A stretch of DNA of 54,985 bases. Origin: a virus (Duplodnaviria > Caudoviricetes). The stretch covers positions 1 to 54,985 of the IMG/VR virus record IMGVR_UViG_3300031801_000852. One strand, written 5' to 3'. Under the pieces are notes generated by a model. It was not told where the DNA came from and did no database searches. It was given only the letters and a program-made list of their open reading frames with translations. Within the stretch, counting starts at the first letter, position 1; each line of letters starts with the position of its first letter. Below, piece by piece: positions 17,787 through 38,911 of this stretch. Position numbers and translations under genes: made by a program.

Positions 17787-17863
17787 TGGGTTGACGGATG
17801 AGAATCGAACTCACGACCTTTTGAATCACAATCAAATGCTCTACCAATTGAGCTACCGTCAAC
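17787..17863 (-). tRNA. tRNA-His(GUG)
   Basis: G-1:C73, acceptor TTGACGG/CCGTCAA, anticodon loop TTGTGAT, GTTCGA, encoded CCA. Confidence 0.95.
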
Positions 17864-17866
17864 ATC

Positions 17867-17951
17867 TGGTGGGGAGAGAAGGAGTCGAACCTTCACAGTC
17901 TCAGACGGCTGATTTACAGTCAGTTGGGCTCGCCACGTGCTCAGCCTCCCC
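17867..17951 (-). tRNA. tRNA-Tyr(GUA)
   Basis: Anticodon loop CTGTAAA, long variable arm, GGTTCGACTCC, A73-CCA. Confidence 0.92.
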
Positions 17952-18165: not shown

Positions 18166-19350
18166 TTATACAAAAAATTTATTGAGGGGGGAAGTGTCAT
18201 CTATTATTTGATCCAATGTTCTGCTATCTCCTTTTTTCCATACCCACATTGGTTCAATAATCTGTTTTCCTTTTGATTCTGGTTTATCATTATTACTGCC
18301 TGGTCTACGATTTAATTTTAATCCGATACATCCAGTATATTTAGATTGTGGAAGTGATTGTATAAAATCATTCATGGGATCACAAATCTTTACATAAGTT
18401 TTATTATTTCCTTTATCGTTTGCATACACATCAGCAATATTGATAATCATCGTTCCATCATCTTTTAAGGAACTCCAACATTTTTCTAAAGTTGGAAACA
18501 AGAAATTTCCTAACCAATCATCAATATCTTTTCCATATCGTTTCCAAGATTGGGTTTCATCATCTGCATATCTTTCTACATGAAAATATGGTGGAGAAGT
18601 ATACACCATATCAAATTTTCTCTTGCTAAGATCTACATCTTCTGCCGGAGCTTTTATAAATTCTGTTTTCTTGTAAGTCTCATAAAGCTCATTTTGTCTT
18701 GGATAATTATCAAACACCTCTTGGTTAGGATCAATGCCTGTATAACTTTCTGCATTAGAGGCGTGAAATCCAGCGAGTCTATCACCCCACCCCATAGAAA
18801 AATCTAAAACATCTTTTGCTTCAAATAAATTATAAAGTGATTTTGCTACTGCTGGTGGATATTGAGCTGCCATATACATTCTCATTTGAATGGCTAATCT
18901 CATTTGTTTATTATTTACCTCTGGCATATCTAATGTCCATAGAGGATTCAAAAATGTTTGATGGAATTTTTTAATCGTCCAAGAACGATAGGGGCTTGTA
19001 TGTCTGGCGTGCTGTACTTTCCATCTTGCGAATTGATGAAAGTAATTAGATGATTTTCTTCCTACATTACTATTTTTTATATACCAATGTGATAAATCAT
19101 ATTTGTAATCTGCTTTAGAATAAAGACTATCTTTGGTCAATAAAGTTCTTGCATCAAACTTCGCTAACTCATAAAAGTCTTGTTTAGCTTCTTCTTCAGT
19201 AATATCAACAAGAGGTAAATCTAACCCCTCAATAGCATCTGAGATTGCATCTTTTAATTCTTGTATAGTATAGATATTTTTTAATTGATGCCAATGAGGT
19301 TTGTCGATGATCAATTCACCATTCACTACAAACGATTTCAAATTTAACAT
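18166..19350 (-). CDS. SAM-dependent amino-DNA methyltransferase-like protein (SPPY family)
   Basis: QYPPAVAK, LDFSMGWGDRLAG, YTSPPYF. Confidence 0.8.
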   Translation of the reverse strand: MLNLKSFVVNGELIIDKPHWHQLKNIYTIQELKDAISDAIEGLDLPLVDITEEEAKQDFYELAKFDARTLLTKDSLYSKADYKYDLSHWYIKNSNVGRKSSNYFHQFARWKVQHARHTSPYRSWTIKKFHQTFLNPLWTLDMPEVNNKQMRLAIQMRMYMAAQYPPAVAKSLYNLFEAKDVLDFSMGWGDRLAGFHASNAESYTGIDPNQEVFDNYPRQNELYETYKKTEFIKAPAEDVDLSKRKFDMVYTSPPYFHVERYADDETQSWKRYGKDIDDWLGNFLFPTLEKCWSSLKDDGTMIINIADVYANDKGNNKTYVKICDPMNDFIQSLPQSKYTGCIGLKLNRRPGSNNDKPESKGKQIIEPMWVWKKGDSRTLDQIIDDTSPLNKFFV

Positions 19351-19357
19351 TATAATC

Positions 19358-19591
19358 TTAGTATTCTCCTAGTCCACCCAATCTACGTTCTACATCTTCA
19401 AGAGTAAAAAATTTAGGTATACCATCGCGGACATCTTCTTTCATATACGAGGCATTGTCCTTAAACAATTCAAATTGGCCCGTGTCACCTTCTTCATAGG
19501 TAGTGGTAAGTCCTGCATTATTCATTTCAACAGAAAGACTTTCTGCTTGAGGTCTATAGTTTCAAGAACTACAATATTTGATTATCCACAT
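19358..19591 (-). CDS. SelW/SelT/SelH (Rdx) family selenoprotein, 77 aa, in-frame UGA at 19562-19564
   Basis: MWIIKYCSS-U-NYRPQAESLSVEMNNAGLTTTYEEGDTGQFELFKD...; CxxU plus GxFE motif; AGGA SD; frame stays open after UGA to TAA at 19358. Confidence 0.82.
19527..19550 (-). promoter_or_regulatory. putative bacterial-type SECIS hairpin
   Basis: UCAAGCAGAAA-GUC-UUUCUGUUGA begins 11 nt after the UGA; apical loop G is 22 nt downstream of the UGA. Confidence 0.65.
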
Positions 19592-19592
19592 A

Positions 19593-19742
19593 TTATGTTC
19601 CTTTTTCTAATTCTTTTACACGATGTTGTAAAGTAGAAATAGTAGTATGAATATGTCCCATTTCAGTTGGCTCAAGTTTTGATTTCAAATGTGCTATTTC
19701 GGCCTTGAGTACCGCAATGTATGTTGTTATTGCTTTATCCAT
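19593..19742 (-). CDS. small hypothetical protein (49 aa, not in ORF track)
   Basis: MDKAITTYIAVLKAEIAHLKSKLEPTEMGHIHTTISTLQHRVKELEKGT. Confidence 0.7.
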   Translation of the reverse strand: MDKAITTYIAVLKAEIAHLKSKLEPTEMGHIHTTISTLQHRVKELEKGT

Positions 19743-19908
19743 TTATTGTGTCCTTATGTAACTTCTTTGTTTGAGAACATTCGAAACATAATTGTCCTGC
19801 ACCTTCTATGTATCCAGAACGATATATAACATTATCTGTTTTCTCTACGGTTGTTAATTTTCCACATTTAATACAAGTTTCAAACTTTTCTTCGTTGTCA
19901 TCTTCCAT
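19735..19908 (-). CDS. small Zn-ribbon protein (57 aa, not in ORF track)
   Basis: CIKC...YIEGAGQLCFEC. Confidence 0.7.
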   Translation of the reverse strand: MEDDNEEKFETCIKCGKLTTVEKTDNVIYRSGYIEGAGQLCFECSQTKKLHKDTING

Positions 19909-19914
19909 TTTACT

Positions 19915-20115
19915 TTACTCCGTGTATTCATCTTTTAATACGAATCTTCCACCGTAGTCTAATTTACAGTATCGATGGATATCTGCTAAAATTGCTAATT
20001 CACCTCCCGCGTCTTTCACAACCATGTATTTTCTAGGACAAGGTTCTGGATGTGTAAACGCAAAATATGAAAAAAGAGATACCCCGACAATCAATAAATT
20101 TATAGTTGTAATCAT
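19915..20115 (-). CDS. small membrane-anchored hypothetical protein
   Basis: N-terminal hydrophobic segment, two Cys. Confidence 0.6.
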   Translation of the reverse strand: MITTINLLIVGVSLFSYFAFTHPEPCPRKYMVVKDAGGELAILADIHRYCKLDYGGRFVLKDEYTE

Positions 20116-20116
20116 T

Positions 20117-20350
20117 TTATAAGTGGTTTATAAATCGTTCTACCTCTGTATAACCACCGACAAATTTATCATCGATGACCACTTGAGGAACAGTATTTAC
20201 ATTTTTTCCTGCGTGGGCTTTCATTTGTTTAAAATTATCTTGGCTTTCTGTAATATCAATTTTGTCTACTTCTATTTTTGCATCCTTTAACATAGATGTT
20301 ACCCTATCACACCAAACACATTTTGTTGTACTAAATACGACTGCTTTCAT
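20117..20350 (-). CDS. glutaredoxin
   Basis: CVWC, TVPQV, VGGY. Confidence 0.92.
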   Translation of the reverse strand: MKAVVFSTTKCVWCDRVTSMLKDAKIEVDKIDITESQDNFKQMKAHAGKNVNTVPQVVIDDKFVGGYTEVERFINHL

Positions 20351-20381
20351 TTTACCTTTCTTTTTTCAAGTATTTATTCAT

Positions 20382-20594
20382 TCATGATGGAAATGTAAGT
20401 CCTTTTTCTTCCATCTGAAAATTTAATTCATTTCGAACAAGTTGTAATACTTCTTCTCTGTCTTGTTCATATTTAATTTTGTTTCGAATAAACTGGTCTA
20501 TGTGCAAAACAAGAAGTGCCCAATCCATTGCTTTCGATGCAAGTTCAAACTCCTCCTTATCTTCCGGTAAATTAAATTCTAGTATTGCTTTCAT
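20382..20594 (-). CDS. hypothetical protein
   Basis: MKAILEFNLPEDKEEF. Confidence 0.75.
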   Translation of the reverse strand: MKAILEFNLPEDKEEFELASKAMDWALLVLHIDQFIRNKIKYEQDREEVLQLVRNELNFQMEEKGLTFPS

Positions 20595-20971: not shown

Positions 20972-21049
20972 TGGCGGCCTCAATGGGATTTGAACCCATG
21001 TTGCAGGATTGACAATCCTGAGTCCTAGACCTGACTGAACGATGAGGCC
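20972..21049 (-). tRNA. tRNA-Asp(GUC)
   Basis: GGCCTCA/TGAGGCC, CAGGA-TTGTCAA-TCCTG, GGTTCAAATCC, G73-CCA. Confidence 0.93.
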
Positions 21050-21447: not shown

Positions 21448-22404
21448 TTATCCTTTGCTATATTTTTGTTGTTCTGGTAAATATTGTTTTCCATCTTTTT
21501 TTACTTCATCATCTTCTATATATTTATTATCTACGTAAGATTGTGCTAATCTCCACTTCAAATATTCATACGCCGAGATTGGTGGATATTTTGCTGGTGT
21601 ACTCATAAGATTTTCAATCATAACATCTCGGCCAGGATCTACAAAGTATGGCATTGAGTATCGTGGTCTATCCATTGCCACATTCACTACTCTATGTGGA
21701 GTAGATTTAAATAAATCATTTGTCCATCGTGCAAACATATCTGCAATATTTAGAACTATACTATTTTCAACTATTGGTACATCTGTCCATTCATCTTTAT
21801 TATCATCAAATAATTGTAAGCCTGGACAATCATCAAATCTCCAAAGTAATGTTTGAGTTCCATAATCAGTATGTTCATTTGCTCTCAATTGACCTTCTTT
21901 AATTTCTCCATCCCACACAGGATATTTAATCATTCTCATAGTTGCAGAACCATCTAAATGTTTCTCTACTAATTTTCCAGTAGGAATTCCTAAAACTTGC
22001 TCAAATCTGTAGAGAAATTGATAGGACAACATTCTTGAGATGCGTTCTATCTTTTGTGCGAGAGGTTTGAATTCTGGTATTTCGGTAGGCCAATATTGTT
22101 CCTGCATCCTTGCTGGTTCAACCCAATTATAAGATTCTTTGAGATCGCCGGGCTTGGATGGAGTCAGGGATTCTTCCTCCATCCAATTGTATCCAAGATT
22201 TTCTGTCACACCAGAGTAAGCATATTTCTTTTTCACCTCTAGTGGTAGTTGGAAAAACTCTTCCATAAGTTTCTCCCAGTCTTGGAATTCCGACAACCAA
22301 TTATCATAGACATGAGTAAATACAGCAAAACCACAAGTAGTATAGGCTTTATACATTTCTTCTGCACAGTCTTGCTCAAATCTAAAGTCTATAATAGGTA
22401 TCAT
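21448..22404 (-). CDS. isopenicillin N synthase-family 2OG-Fe(II) dioxygenase
   Basis: IPIIDF, DLKESY, HTDYG, STPHRV, RYSMPYF. Confidence 0.9.
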   Translation of the reverse strand: MIPIIDFRFEQDCAEEMYKAYTTCGFAVFTHVYDNWLSEFQDWEKLMEEFFQLPLEVKKKYAYSGVTENLGYNWMEEESLTPSKPGDLKESYNWVEPARMQEQYWPTEIPEFKPLAQKIERISRMLSYQFLYRFEQVLGIPTGKLVEKHLDGSATMRMIKYPVWDGEIKEGQLRANEHTDYGTQTLLWRFDDCPGLQLFDDNKDEWTDVPIVENSIVLNIADMFARWTNDLFKSTPHRVVNVAMDRPRYSMPYFVDPGRDVMIENLMSTPAKYPPISAYEYLKWRLAQSYVDNKYIEDDEVKKDGKQYLPEQQKYSKG

Positions 22405-24051: not shown

Positions 24052-25581
24052 TCAAAATCCTCTAAAATATTCAATAAATTCTTTGTATGTGGACTCATTT
24101 TGTAAGTCTTGATCCCATTGTTTATTCATCTCATAATAATCTAGTTGTGCATGTTCAGACAGGTTTCTCCCGTCCCATTCAACATCAAGTTCTGCACCTG
24201 CTACATCTTTATTGATTACATTAATGCCTTCCATTACATAACTCCACAAACCCCAATTTGCACTGCCTGGATTATCGTTGAAAACATTAACAGTAGGTAT
24301 ATTAGTTTTAGCCATTTCTAGTAAATCTTTAACAAATTCAGTTTTTGTTACACCAGTCTTTATATATTTCCAAAATTCACTATCTTCTCGGCCACCCATA
24401 TAGTGCATTACAAGAAAATCTTTTAAATCATCATACATTATTCTTGTACGCTTGTTATAAATTGCAATACTACCTTCATTTATTGTATTGTTGATGGTAG
24501 GTTTTACATATTCAAAGAATAGATTGTTTGCTTGGAAAATAGTTGAATGTATACTATTTGCTTCCAATGGTTCTAAGAAAGCACTACTAAGTCCTATTGT
24601 TACACAGTTTTTGATCCATGCAGATTCTTGCCGTCCAGAAGAAAATTTAATTGTTCTAATAGGATCAATCTCCTGTCCTAGTATAGTTTCTATTTCTTCT
24701 TGTGCTTTGTCTGGAGTAGTATATGCATCACAATACACATACCCACATCCTTTACTGTCCATTAATGGTATTTGCCACATCCATCCTGCTTTTTGAGCCC
24801 AAGCTGTTGTATATGGTTCAGGAATTTCATCTTGTTTATATTTTAAATGGAATGGCATACCGGCGTTTAATGGTAAGTTGTCTTTATAACTGACCCATTT
24901 GCTTGGTAGGTGTTTCATTATTACACGATTAAAGCCTGAACAGTCAACAAATAAGTCACCATCAACAGTCTGGCCATTAGATAGGCCTAAGTCTTTAACA
25001 AATCCCTGTTCATTAAGTGACACATCTAATACCTCTGAATCAATACATTTTGTGTTATGCCTTTGTAGAGAAATTTTCTTAAAATATTGACCAGTAAGGT
25101 GGGCATCTATGTGATATGCATGATCTTTCTCACTTCCATTTATAAATTGTTTAGTATGTTTGTTAAAATTACTACTACCATGATAAATCCGATGTCCGCA
25201 CCTTGATAATTTTAACATATCTTGTCGCGATAGCTTATCTAAACCATAATTAAACATAATGTCAGGTACAAACCAGTTAGTGGTAGTTCCATCTATAGGG
25301 CCTATGTAATAATCATCTATATTATTAGTCCAGCCTTTATGTTTGATAGCATATTTTAGTGTTGCACCTGTTTCTTTAATAAATTCATGTTGGTCACAAC
25401 CAAAGTTTGTTGCCCCGTTTGCAACTATAGCAGTAAAAAATCCTGTTGTACTTTCACCTACTCCTACAACTCCTATTTTGCTGCTTTCTATAACAGTAAT
25501 ATTGTGATTAGGGTGTCTTGCACTAGCAATTATTGCACTAATCCAACCAGCAGTGCCACCACCAACGATAACTATTTTCAT
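24052..25581 (-). CDS. flavin-dependent tryptophan halogenase-family protein
   Basis: GGGTAGW, GVGEST, catalytic-position Lys (ATLK), GWMWQIP, FLEPLE. Confidence 0.9.
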   Translation of the reverse strand: MKIVIVGGGTAGWISAIIASARHPNHNITVIESSKIGVVGVGESTTGFFTAIVANGATNFGCDQHEFIKETGATLKYAIKHKGWTNNIDDYYIGPIDGTTTNWFVPDIMFNYGLDKLSRQDMLKLSRCGHRIYHGSSNFNKHTKQFINGSEKDHAYHIDAHLTGQYFKKISLQRHNTKCIDSEVLDVSLNEQGFVKDLGLSNGQTVDGDLFVDCSGFNRVIMKHLPSKWVSYKDNLPLNAGMPFHLKYKQDEIPEPYTTAWAQKAGWMWQIPLMDSKGCGYVYCDAYTTPDKAQEEIETILGQEIDPIRTIKFSSGRQESAWIKNCVTIGLSSAFLEPLEANSIHSTIFQANNLFFEYVKPTINNTINEGSIAIYNKRTRIMYDDLKDFLVMHYMGGREDSEFWKYIKTGVTKTEFVKDLLEMAKTNIPTVNVFNDNPGSANWGLWSYVMEGINVINKDVAGAELDVEWDGRNLSEHAQLDYYEMNKQWDQDLQNESTYKEFIEYFRGF

Positions 25582-36761: not shown

Positions 36762-37332
36762 AATCTTTCAATTTTTTAAGGGCAACCATCGTGCCCGCTT
36801 GTTCAATTATTTCGGCGTAACCCTCTTCGATCCATTCATCTATAAATCTAGTTACTCCTTCACAAGTTGGATCAGTATAATCATGAGCTAAACAAGGACC
36901 ATTTAAATAATTCCAATGATGAATAAGGTCTTTCTTAACTCCTTCATATGAATGATCACCATCAACAAATAACATAGACAATGGTACATTTTCCATTGCG
37001 TGAGAATTCTCTGTCCTAATATCTATACGTTCTTTTTCTTCGTAATCATTCAACCAATCATCCACATCTGGATCATGACACCCCTCAACAACATCAACGG
37101 AAACTATTTCTACTTTGGTATCGTGTGTAGCAATGGCAAGTAATATGGTTGATCCTCCCCAATATCGACCAATCTCTAATATGATATTACCCTCTCTTGT
37201 CTTGGGCATTATTTTCCATTGCTGTGAAGCATACTTGTACAATAATCCTGCTTCATGCAAATCTAATCGAATTATATTTCTTGTTTCTCTTGGTGAATTA
37301 AATAACCATAATAATTGTGAAAAATCAGTCAT
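36751..37332 (-). CDS. class I SAM-dependent methyltransferase (small-molecule/O-MTase-like)
   Basis: LEIGRYWGGST, LFVDGDHSYEGV, HDY. Confidence 0.85.
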   Translation of the reverse strand: MTDFSQLLWLFNSPRETRNIIRLDLHEAGLLYKYASQQWKIMPKTREGNIILEIGRYWGGSTILLAIATHDTKVEIVSVDVVEGCHDPDVDDWLNDYEEKERIDIRTENSHAMENVPLSMLFVDGDHSYEGVKKDLIHHWNYLNGPCLAHDYTDPTCEGVTRFIDEWIEEGYAEIIEQAGTMVALKKLKDYEI

Positions 37333-38911
37333 TGTGAATATTGTTTTTTAGATATTGATAAGGGCTTGGAAAATCTTTAATTTGTTCATCCCAATTCTTT
37401 TTTCTTTCTTCAATTTGCTGAATATTGAACTTAGTCATTTTTTTAATACTTTCCATATTGCCCCCACTATATTTTATTGAATGTATATCTGTAGGGTTCC
37501 AATTCATACCAGCCGCCATACAATGGGCAGGACTATATGTATTGAATTGCTTATTAAAATTTTTCTCCCTATAAGCCTGATGAAATTTTCCAGATAAACC
37601 ATCAGAAGTAGATGAAAAAAGATCTGGTGACCACTCTCTAGATATTATCTCTCGCCAGTATTCAGTATCATCTCTATGTGTGAGCCCATAACACATTACA
37701 ACCGGAGCGGCAAATCCATAAAAATCATCATGACATTTGGTAGTAAATTCTTTTCTATCCCATTCACTTATATGTCCTCGTTCTAATGTACAACATAAAT
37801 TAAATATAAATTGATGAGTACAATGTAATCCATTGGATTGTAATGGTTCAATAAAACCTGCTGCTAACCCAATTGCACAAGTATTTTTAACCCATAATTT
37901 TGATTGTATTCCACATCTCATTGGAATTAAATGATATTCTAAAGCTTCAACATTTTCATATCCTTTTCTTCTTAATCCCTGTTTAAATTCTCGTAATGCG
38001 GCTTGTGTAGAAATAAACTTATCCGAAAATACATAACCAGATCCCATTCTAGACCACAATGGAATTTCCCATATCCAGCCATTTTCAATCGCTGTACACT
38101 TTGTATAATTTACAATTTGTGTTTCTGGATCTTTATAAGGTATTTTAGTAGCCCAAGCATAATTATTGGGAATATAATCATTAATGTTTACAAATGATAC
38201 CCCAAAGGCTTCAGTCAATAATAAAGATTTGAATCCTGTACAGTCTATAAATAAATCTGCCTCAAGTCTACGCCCATCATCTAATACAAGATGTTTAATC
38301 CCATTATCATTCAAAGGGATTTCTTTTACTTCTGCTAGAATATGAGTGAAATTATTAGAATACTTAGACTTACAGTAATTATCTTTCAACCATATACCGA
38401 ATTTAGTAGCATCAAATTGATAAGAATATTTCGATTGTTGTTGAACTTCATTCTCTGAAGAATTATCAGTAAAAAGTGATTTGTTTTGATTTACAAGTGC
38501 CATCCCTGGGAAAAAACATTCCGCATAATCACTTACTGGTGTTTCGGGATAAAGTATTTTTTTAAAATGCCAGTCATCTAATCCAGTATTTGGTGGAAAT
38601 ATTGGCATACCAAATGGATAATGAAATGTTCCTGAATCTTCTCGATACCAGTTTTCAAATGCAATACTTAATTTATAAATGGCATCACAATGAGGCATAA
38701 AATCACGGTCATTAATGTCTACCAAACTTAACCAATTAGCAATACCTTGAAAACCACTTTGACCACCAGCAACAGTACTTTCTCCCACACCTATATTAGA
38801 AATATTAGGAGATTCTACAAGTGTAATTTTTTTATCAGGAAATTGATTTAATAATGTGGCTGCGGTCATCCACCCCGCCGTACCACCTCCTACTATTGCA
38901 ATATTAATCAT
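37325..38911 (-). CDS. flavin-dependent tryptophan halogenase-family protein
   Basis: GGGTAGW, GVGEST, AIYK, GWIWEIP, FIEPL. Confidence 0.9.
   Translation of the reverse strand: MINIAIVGGGTAGWMTAATLLNQFPDKKITLVESPNISNIGVGESTVAGGQSGFQGIANWLSLVDINDRDFMPHCDAIYKLSIAFENWYREDSGTFHYPFGMPIFPPNTGLDDWHFKKILYPETPVSDYAECFFPGMALVNQNKSLFTDNSSENEVQQQSKYSYQFDATKFGIWLKDNYCKSKYSNNFTHILAEVKEIPLNDNGIKHLVLDDGRRLEADLFIDCTGFKSLLLTEAFGVSFVNINDYIPNNYAWATKIPYKDPETQIVNYTKCTAIENGWIWEIPLWSRMGSGYVFSDKFISTQAALREFKQGLRRKGYENVEALEYHLIPMRCGIQSKLWVKNTCAIGLAAGFIEPLQSNGLHCTHQFIFNLCCTLERGHISEWDRKEFTTKCHDDFYGFAAPVVMCYGLTHRDDTEYWREIISREWSPDLFSSTSDGLSGKFHQAYREKNFNKQFNTYSPAHCMAAGMNWNPTDIHSIKYSGGNMESIKKMTKFNIQQIEERKKNWDEQIKDFPSPYQYLKNNIHND

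Follow-up and report, generated by a model that had tools for sequence, protein, structure and literature searches.

A SelW-like gene with an in-frame UGA and a SECIS-like hairpin in marine T4-like phages: a candidate phage selenoprotein

Background

In fdhF of Escherichia coli the hairpin that serves as SelB ligand lies just 3' of the UGA within the open reading frame (ORF), and a G-U starts its small apical loop. The SelW-like proteins are the most abundant family among marine bacterial selenoproteins (PMC1088965, PMC2398784), and the available text of both surveys makes no mention of phages. A 2021 re-analysis of the Global Ocean Sampling data states that few or no viral sequences belong to selenoprotein families (PMC9402790). 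Among viruses, a 2021 review, as far as its available text goes, names two poxviruses that acquired a selenoprotein gene, molluscum contagiosum and fowlpox (PMC8310308). Here we describe a predicted selenoprotein gene of the SelW-like (Rdx) family, with one in-frame UGA followed by a hairpin that resembles a bacterial selenocysteine insertion sequence (SECIS), on a viral contig from IMG/VR. The contig of 54,985 bp, about 30% complete by estimate, was analysed over its whole length and is called the window below.

Position and reading frame of the gene

The elements of the gene in the window are as follows.

19358..19591, minus strand: predicted SelW-like (Rdx family) selenoprotein gene, 77 codons with one in-frame UGA, then TAA at 19360-19358 (sequence, translation, Pfam Rdx, predicted fold)
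19599..19602, minus strand: Shine-Dalgarno-like AGGA, 7 nt 5' of the ATG (direct reading of the sequence)
19562..19573, minus strand: CxxU motif, Cys7 (TGT), Ser, Ser and putative selenocysteine (Sec) 10 (TGA 19564-19562) (translation, family alignment)
19466..19480, minus strand: GQFEL motif, residues 38-42, in strand beta3 of the Rdx fold (alignment A3, model strand 40-44)

Translation of the minus strand from the ATG at 19591-19589 yields MWIIKYCSS-UGA-NYRPQ…, in which WIIKYCSS corresponds to codons 2-9, the TGA comes next, and 67 sense codons remain open 3' of it up to the TAA. The position of the Shine-Dalgarno element is occupied by AAGGAG or AAGGA in related loci. A first-pass annotation of this DNA had given the ATG, the AGGA, the UGA, the 67-codon frame and the hairpin coordinates, all of which proved exact on re-checking the sequence, and had stated that the frame fills the gap between its neighbours. 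This is the case: under table 11 the sole call here is an ORF of 55 amino acids (19525-19358, from the ATG at 19525), which leaves a gap of 67 nt (19526-19592), and the read-through form closes that gap without any overlap. Of ten read-through candidates in the window, the one at 19591-19358 is the only one that combines an extension lying fully in an uncalled gap with a CxxU context. A simple screen of the window and of a related phage record (G001) for further selenoprotein genes found none besides the SelW-like gene.

The further statement of that annotation, that standard gene callers miss the gene, is borne out by the public protein collection, where the gene appears either as truncations of 53-57 amino acids (the 55-residue ORF and its equivalents) or as full-length entries. 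Tryptophan stands at the Sec position in 29 of the 31 full-length entries examined (P0002-P0054), the other two being a Sec-less form that is treated below. Because no DNA copy carries TGG, we read these tryptophans as products of translation under code 4, most likely a calling artefact on short AT-rich contigs. Gene callers would thus hide selenoproteins of this kind in two ways, by cutting the gene to 55 amino acids or by giving a false Trp under code 4. Among cultured and deposited phages, blastn with positions 18900-20400 returned no match, and tblastn with the product returned chance matches only (E of at least 1, in 33 records).

Conservation of the UGA

Relatives of the gene were collected as 118 loci from IMG/VR and from JGI/ENA metagenome contigs, so that the comparison comprises 119 sequences with the window; 163 further matching metagenome stretches are not among these loci. 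Over the first 28 codons the set contains 87 distinct sequences, and protein identity reaches down to 46%. The family is abundant: a relative is encoded in 243 metagenome stretches and carried by 37 IMG/VR contigs, and near-identical DNA was found in 14 runs from 11 studies.

The Sec column reads TGA in 115 of the 119 sequences and in none of them TGG (Trp), TGT or TGC (Cys). The remaining four are one codon shorter and have CGA in its place (C-G-R-K/N-Y); they belong to a single lineage (L003, L004, L064 and L065; gene e.g. at L003:3001-3228) whose protein is 83% identical to that of the window. Judged from this distribution, the in-frame UGA is neither a product of chance nor an assembly error, and the comparison indicates that it is under selection as a codon.

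The codons on either side of the UGA vary synonymously among the 87 distinct sequences. On the 5' side Ile4 uses three codons, Tyr6 is TAT in 69 and TAC in 18, the invariant Cys7 is TGT in 77 and TGC in 10, and Gly8 uses four codons; on the 3' side Tyr12 is TAC in 40 and TAT in 47, and Pro14 uses four codons. Synonymous change with fixed residues on both flanks implies that both are translated in one frame. This bears on the view that the gene is split or broken, with the UGA as a real stop, the 55-residue ORF from Met23 (or nothing) as the only product and the first nine codons as a leftover. Table 11 does call that ORF, at the ATG at 19525, and many public entries have 53-57 residues. We consider such a gene very unlikely, as its nine upstream codons are conserved at the protein level with synonymous variation and retain the start codon and the Shine-Dalgarno element, and as a decaying gene would not have kept TGA in 115 of 119 deeply diverged sequences. 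The ATG of the 55-residue ORF is moreover replaced by an Ile codon in 16 of the 87 distinct sequences, and the ORF is therefore not a separate gene; its product would be without β1 and α1 of the fold described below.

A general reassignment of TGA to an amino acid, in the phage or in its host (code 4 or 25), has in its favour that some public gene callers picked such a code for short contigs with the gene. This explanation has next to no probability in our view. TGA is the commonest stop codon in the window, where it ends 30 of 67 non-overlapping ORFs (at a coding cover of 92% under table 11), and in G001 it terminates 73 of 203 ORFs; its frequent use as a stop speaks against any general reassignment. 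Furthermore, one gene only in the window requires read-through, and neither the window nor G001 yielded a suppressor tRNA.

One metagenome copy (L063:328-576) keeps the TGA and the hairpin and has lost the Cys of the CxxU to a short insertion (KYQSISYSGSU).

The hairpin downstream of the UGA

The hairpin lies within the coding sequence.

19527..19550, minus strand: SECIS-like hairpin UCAAGCAGAAA-GUC-UUUCUGUUGA, core 19547-19540 paired with 19536-19529 (RNAalifold, covariation)

The loop GUC occupies 19539-19537, A19548 is bulged, and two outer pairs extend the structure to 19550 and 19527. The G that opens the loop (19539) is separated from the UGA by 22 nt, which places it at +26 if the U of the UGA is counted as 1. 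Unguided folding with RNAalifold of 83 distinct sequences, over a segment that begins 6 nt 5' of the TGA and ends 60 nt 3' of it, recovers a stem of 8 bp, and the loop of the family has three nucleotides, G(U/G)C, of which the G is invariant.

The hairpin is conserved across the family with compensatory changes. One stem pair joins two synonymous sites, the third codon positions of Ala16 (GCN) and Ser20 (TCN); it is A-U in 73, G-C in 10, C-G in one and G-U in two of the 87 distinct sequences, and a mismatch in the remaining one. Cells changed on both sides number 11 in the alignment against 2.5 in shuffles, and none of 500 shuffles reaches 11; 87% of the cells are paired, and sliding the partner column lowers this to 31-55%. 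The codons within stem and loop are nearly frozen (Glu17 GAA in 86 of 86, Ser18 AGT in 78 of 78, Leu19 CTT in 86 of 87, Val21 GTT in 63 of 63), and beyond the hairpin Leu28 uses six codons. A divergent member (L016) has a hairpin of different sequence at the same site. In the Sec-less lineage a change breaks the stem, and the segment folds at -2.6 kcal/mol (z 0.11) as compared with -6.8 to -9.5 kcal/mol in Sec-bearing members. Loss of the UGA thus appears to be accompanied by loss of the hairpin in the only lineage that lacks the UGA. We interpret this pattern as an indication of constraint at the RNA level, which makes the hairpin a candidate SECIS of the bacterial type within an overall explanation that we hold to be highly probable.

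Family and predicted fold of the product

The affiliation of the product was assessed with the Rdx hidden Markov model of Pfam (PF10262), which the window product, with Sec entered as Cys, matches with 21.4 bits (E 2.9e-4). An alignment of the window product with 31 diverse relatives, TGA being translated as Sec (alignment A3), gives a clearer picture: with Sec as Cys all 32 representatives match Rdx at E<=0.01 (best 1.8e-10), and with W at the Sec column just 7 of 22 match at E<=0.1. Residues invariant in A3 are C7, the U column, G38, Q39 and F40.

The AlphaFold2 model built from A3 (predicted local distance difference test score 78.6, predicted template modelling score 0.62) has the topology β1(2-6), α1(13-25), β2(30-34), β3(40-44), β4(47-51), α2(64-73), in which C7-S-S-U10 is placed between β1 and α1. 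A Foldseek search of the PDB gave 14 matches at E<=0.001, and among the matches listed the top 11 chains are all bacterial SelW-related or Rdx proteins (2ojl, 2fa8, 3dex, 2p0g, 2obk, 2oka) with E of 2e-4 to 8e-4 and template modelling scores of 0.57-0.69. Next in order come MIEN1 (2ljk) and mouse SelW (2npb), and ordinary thioredoxins after them. A sequence-profile search of the PDB returned nothing significant; its best relevant match is 2p0g (E 0.72), and in this weak alignment the residue of 2p0g opposite the Sec column is the second Cys of its CxxC. Alignment and model together suggest a thioredoxin-fold protein of 77 residues in the Rdx/SelW-like family with Sec at the second position of a CxxU, which forms part of the same favoured explanation. 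Most likely it would act as a thiol-selenol oxidoreductase in a phage redox or glutaredoxin context.

It is conceivable that a standard tRNA reads the UGA as Trp under stimulation by the hairpin, which would give a CxxW product and let most ribosomes stop after nine residues. Hairpin-stimulated read-through has a precedent in the coat extension of the RNA phage Qβ, and a UGA followed by A with a hairpin nearby could in principle favour it. The stem is short and AU-rich, the public calls show W at the position, albeit in code-4 translations, and Sec competence of the host is something we infer only. We nevertheless regard Trp read-through as improbable. The UGA coincides exactly with the second redox residue of the Rdx CxxC/CxxU, and Pfam Rdx is matched by 32 of 32 sequences with Cys there, as against 7 of 22 with Trp; TGG is a single mutation away, yet it occurs in none of the 119 sequences; a product of nine residues has no plausible role of its own; and homologues in Sec-competent SAR324 bacteria, described below, have the same placement of UGA and hairpin.

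Proposed decoding of the UGA

The explanation that we favour, and consider to be very probably correct on the combined sequence comparisons and structure model, is that of a SelW-like gene whose UGA is decoded as Sec by means of a SECIS and with host machinery. In substance this is what the first-pass annotation had put forward (a phage selenoprotein gene of the SelW/Rdx family with a CxxU and a SECIS-like hairpin), and the search with the Rdx model, the composition of the UGA column and the comparison of the hairpins all lend support to it. The mRNA would form a hairpin of 8-10 bp within the coding sequence, acting as a bacterial-type SECIS, whose small G-first loop sits 25 nt downstream of the U of the UGA. 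During infection, host SelB·GTP·Sec-tRNA(Sec) would bind the hairpin and, competing with release factor 2, supply Sec at the UGA. The gene and the cis-element alone would be of phage origin, while tRNA-Sec, SelA, SelB and SelD would be provided by the host, and the result would be a CxxU thiol-selenol oxidoreductase. In this scheme the binding of SelB, the incorporation of Sec, a role in redox chemistry and the kind of host are all inferred.

Selenocysteine machinery and possible hosts

The search for Sec machinery covered four phage records with the gene, including G001 (134.5 kb, estimated to be 100% complete). None of the four contains a tRNA-Sec above the Rfam cut-off or a SelB wing domain, the two components that were looked for. 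The sub-threshold tRNA-Sec matches examined with ARAGORN are tRNAs for Tyr, Gly, Asp and Asn, and the tRNAs of G001 are those for Asn and Tyr only. As tRNA-Sec and SelB were not found in the phage records, the machinery must apparently be supplied by the host, which should therefore be Sec-competent. The gene psbA is absent from all four records, and the portal protein of the window is about 55% identical to the portals of both cyanomyophages and the Pelagibacter phage Mosig. Actinomarina has a full Sec pathway, according to the available text of a 2026 preprint (10.64898/2026.04.03.716425).

When GTDB was scanned with one genome for each species, three genomes proved to carry the phage-type gene. 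Two of them are short contigs in metagenome-assembled genomes, one of Flavobacteriales (L128, 1.4 kb) and one of Nitrososphaerales (L129, 2.2 kb), the protein of the latter being identical to that of the viral locus L022; these contigs look like misbinned phage fragments, and we do not use them as evidence for a host. The third carrier, a contig of 5.5 kb, belongs to a single-cell genome of SAR324; its copy is 53% identical to the query, has the TGA, and has a hairpin nearly identical to that of the phages (Rdx score 23.2). This copy is surrounded by cellular genes (adenylate cyclase/TPR, ABC1 kinase, TetR, MORN), and the same genome has a tRNA-Sec (56.4 bits) and a SelB of 658 amino acids (72.6 bits). 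The portal protein of the window has no match in this genome, and we therefore do not take the copy as a sign of an infected cell.

SelW-like genes are common in the SAR324 phylum, with a match in 63 of 88 genomes (L138-L166 among them) and one TGA in each. These genes have the context U-N-Y-x-P-x-A and a GC-rich hairpin at the same distance as in the phages, with the loops GUU, GUC and GGU. Their proteins are much farther from the phage family (22-45 bits as against 90.5). In a tree of 38 rows, from which L006, L008, L020, L036 and L114 were left out, the ordinary SAR324 SelW-like sequences are split from the phage clade with support of 100/100, and the phage-type SAR324 copy is nested in a phage subclade (98/92). 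This hints at a transfer of the selenoprotein gene from phage to cell; both the nesting and the direction are tentative, because the copy stands on a long branch (0.95).

Observations that weaken the case

Several observations count against the explanation favoured here. Taken alone, the hairpin of the window is modest: it folds at -6.8 kcal/mol (z -1.66), 17 of 200 shuffles fold as well, and so do 344 of 5000 variants that encode this peptide with synonymous codons. Since the fold of the single sequence is only modestly unusual, support for the hairpin comes from the comparison across the family and not from the window sequence. Because the sequences are related, the compensatory changes may moreover represent perhaps three or four independent events and not 11. 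Rfam SECIS families have no match at gathering score in the window and none at E<=10 in 19480-19600; bacterial SECIS elements are poorly represented in Rfam, as the available part of a preprint states (10.64898/2026.04.03.716425).

As to the protein, the Rdx score of the window product lies just below the gathering cut-off of 22.6 bits. The Sec-less lineage retains an intact ORF of 76 codons, and the protein may therefore tolerate the loss of Sec. No Cys-form member of the phage subfamily was found, either among the 119 DNA sequences or among the 31 full-length public proteins. Three RNA-library runs contain short contigs only, which are fragments of the region. One piece of 52 nt spans the UGA and the hairpin with four differences and then continues into unlike sequence; the remaining pieces represent upstream ORFs or the glutaredoxin gene, and the libraries may contain DNA.

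The hints at the host are in conflict with one another. G001 encodes a permuted transfer-messenger RNA (tmRNA) (RF04321, tmRNA_permuted, 88.8 bits, at L173:11520-11728; tag peptide according to ARAGORN ANNNDYTPAYAYAIAA). Permuted tmRNAs are typical of Alphaproteobacteria. The permuted family is found above cut-off in none of five SAR324 genomes, and a permuted tmRNA in G001 without a SAR324 counterpart conflicts with SAR324 as a lead to the host. For Pelagibacter, 135 complete genomes are reported to be without selC in the available text of the preprint just cited (10.64898/2026.04.03.716425); if the phages infect SAR11, Sec insertion would be impossible.

Genomic context

The genes of the window include a tail sheath, a portal, a large terminase, an SbcC-like nuclease and a helicase, and by this gene content the window is a fragment of a T4-like myophage. 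The predicted selenoprotein gene sits in a block of small ORFs on the same strand, together with a CxxC glutaredoxin.

19593..19742, minus strand: upstream ORF of 49 amino acids, coiled-coil-like, its stop adjoining the selenoprotein ATG (sequence, ORF calls)
20117..20350, minus strand: glutaredoxin gene (CVWC), 526 nt upstream of the selenoprotein gene (Pfam Glutaredoxin, E 2.9e-14)

The 49-residue ORF ends in TAA one base before the ATG of the selenoprotein gene, so that translational coupling of the two is possible, and 25 of the 118 loci have a same-strand homologue of this ORF upstream. Of the 118 loci, 61 of which have at least 1 kb of upstream flank, only 21 show a glutaredoxin homologue at up to about 2.2 kb on the strand of the selenoprotein gene. 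No terminator-like site was found between the glutaredoxin and selenoprotein genes. The arrangement is compatible with co-transcription of the two genes.

Some further genes of the region may be recorded here. Directly downstream of the selenoprotein gene lies a DNA methyltransferase-like gene of 394 amino acids (N6_N4_Mtase, E 1.4e-7; 18166-19350, minus strand), which is so placed in four of the 118 loci, and a 2-oxoglutarate-Fe(II) oxygenase gene (E 5e-18; 21448-22404, minus strand) is situated upstream in the strand block of the glutaredoxin and SelW-like genes. The block of small ORFs is flanked by three tRNA genes (His-GTG, Tyr-GTA and Asp-GTC; 17787-17951 and 20972-21049, minus strand), of which tRNA-Tyr and tRNA-Asp recur in the related records G001 and G002. 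Elsewhere in the window two genes match the PHROG annotation 'tryptophan halogenase' (37325-38911, E 4e-126, and 24052-25581, E 6e-104, both on the minus strand).

Implications and comparison with known systems

A search of the literature for a phage selenoprotein found no report; supplementary tables of marine surveys were not covered by it. The molecular kind is known, and the phage carrier and the dependence on host recoding appear to be new. It seems likely to us that a widespread clade of marine T4-like phages makes a selenoprotein, carrying only the SelW-like gene and its SECIS and commandeering the Sec pathway of the host, a judgement that we extend to this claim jointly with the following consequences. 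The protein would be the first selenoprotein of a phage, and its gene the first phage auxiliary gene that depends on a recoding trait of the host. The gene would mark Sec-competent hosts and so serve as a predictor of host physiology from sequence alone. The lineage in which Sec is lost and the hairpin has decayed would bear witness to a move to a host without Sec, and the SAR324 copy inside the phage clade would record a transfer of a selenoprotein gene from phage to bacterium. Counts of the marine selenoproteome, including the top-ranking SelW-like signal, would be partly viral. If Sec is inserted, an RNA element of 24 nt would suffice for phages to exploit the expanded genetic code of their host.

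The closest known systems are compared as follows. With the bacterial SelW-like selenoproteins of marine metagenomes (Rdx PF10262, formerly PF05169) the predicted phage protein has in common the CxxU, a length of about 75-90 residues and the thioredoxin-like Rdx fold, and its gene has in common the UGA and, 3' of it within the frame, a hairpin whose small apical loop contains a G. It differs from them in its T4-like phage carrier, its own clade and its AU-rich stem. From fdhF it differs in the position of the loop G, which is at +26 in the phage and at G23 in fdhF, and in the bulge, where the phage has an A at the stem base and fdhF a U near the loop; binding of SelB to the phage hairpin is a prediction. 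The NrdC-type glutaredoxin/thioredoxin of T4 is likewise a small redox protein with a thioredoxin fold whose gene is one of the early or auxiliary genes of the phage, but such proteins have Cys only and involve no recoding. With the glutathione peroxidase of poxviruses the predicted phage system would share a viral selenoprotein gene with a SECIS and the use of host Sec machinery, and the fowlpox SECIS also lies within the coding region, according to the available text of the review (PMC8310308). Poxviruses, by contrast, are viruses of eukaryotes, with a eukaryotic SECIS, SBP2/eEFSec and a different protein family.

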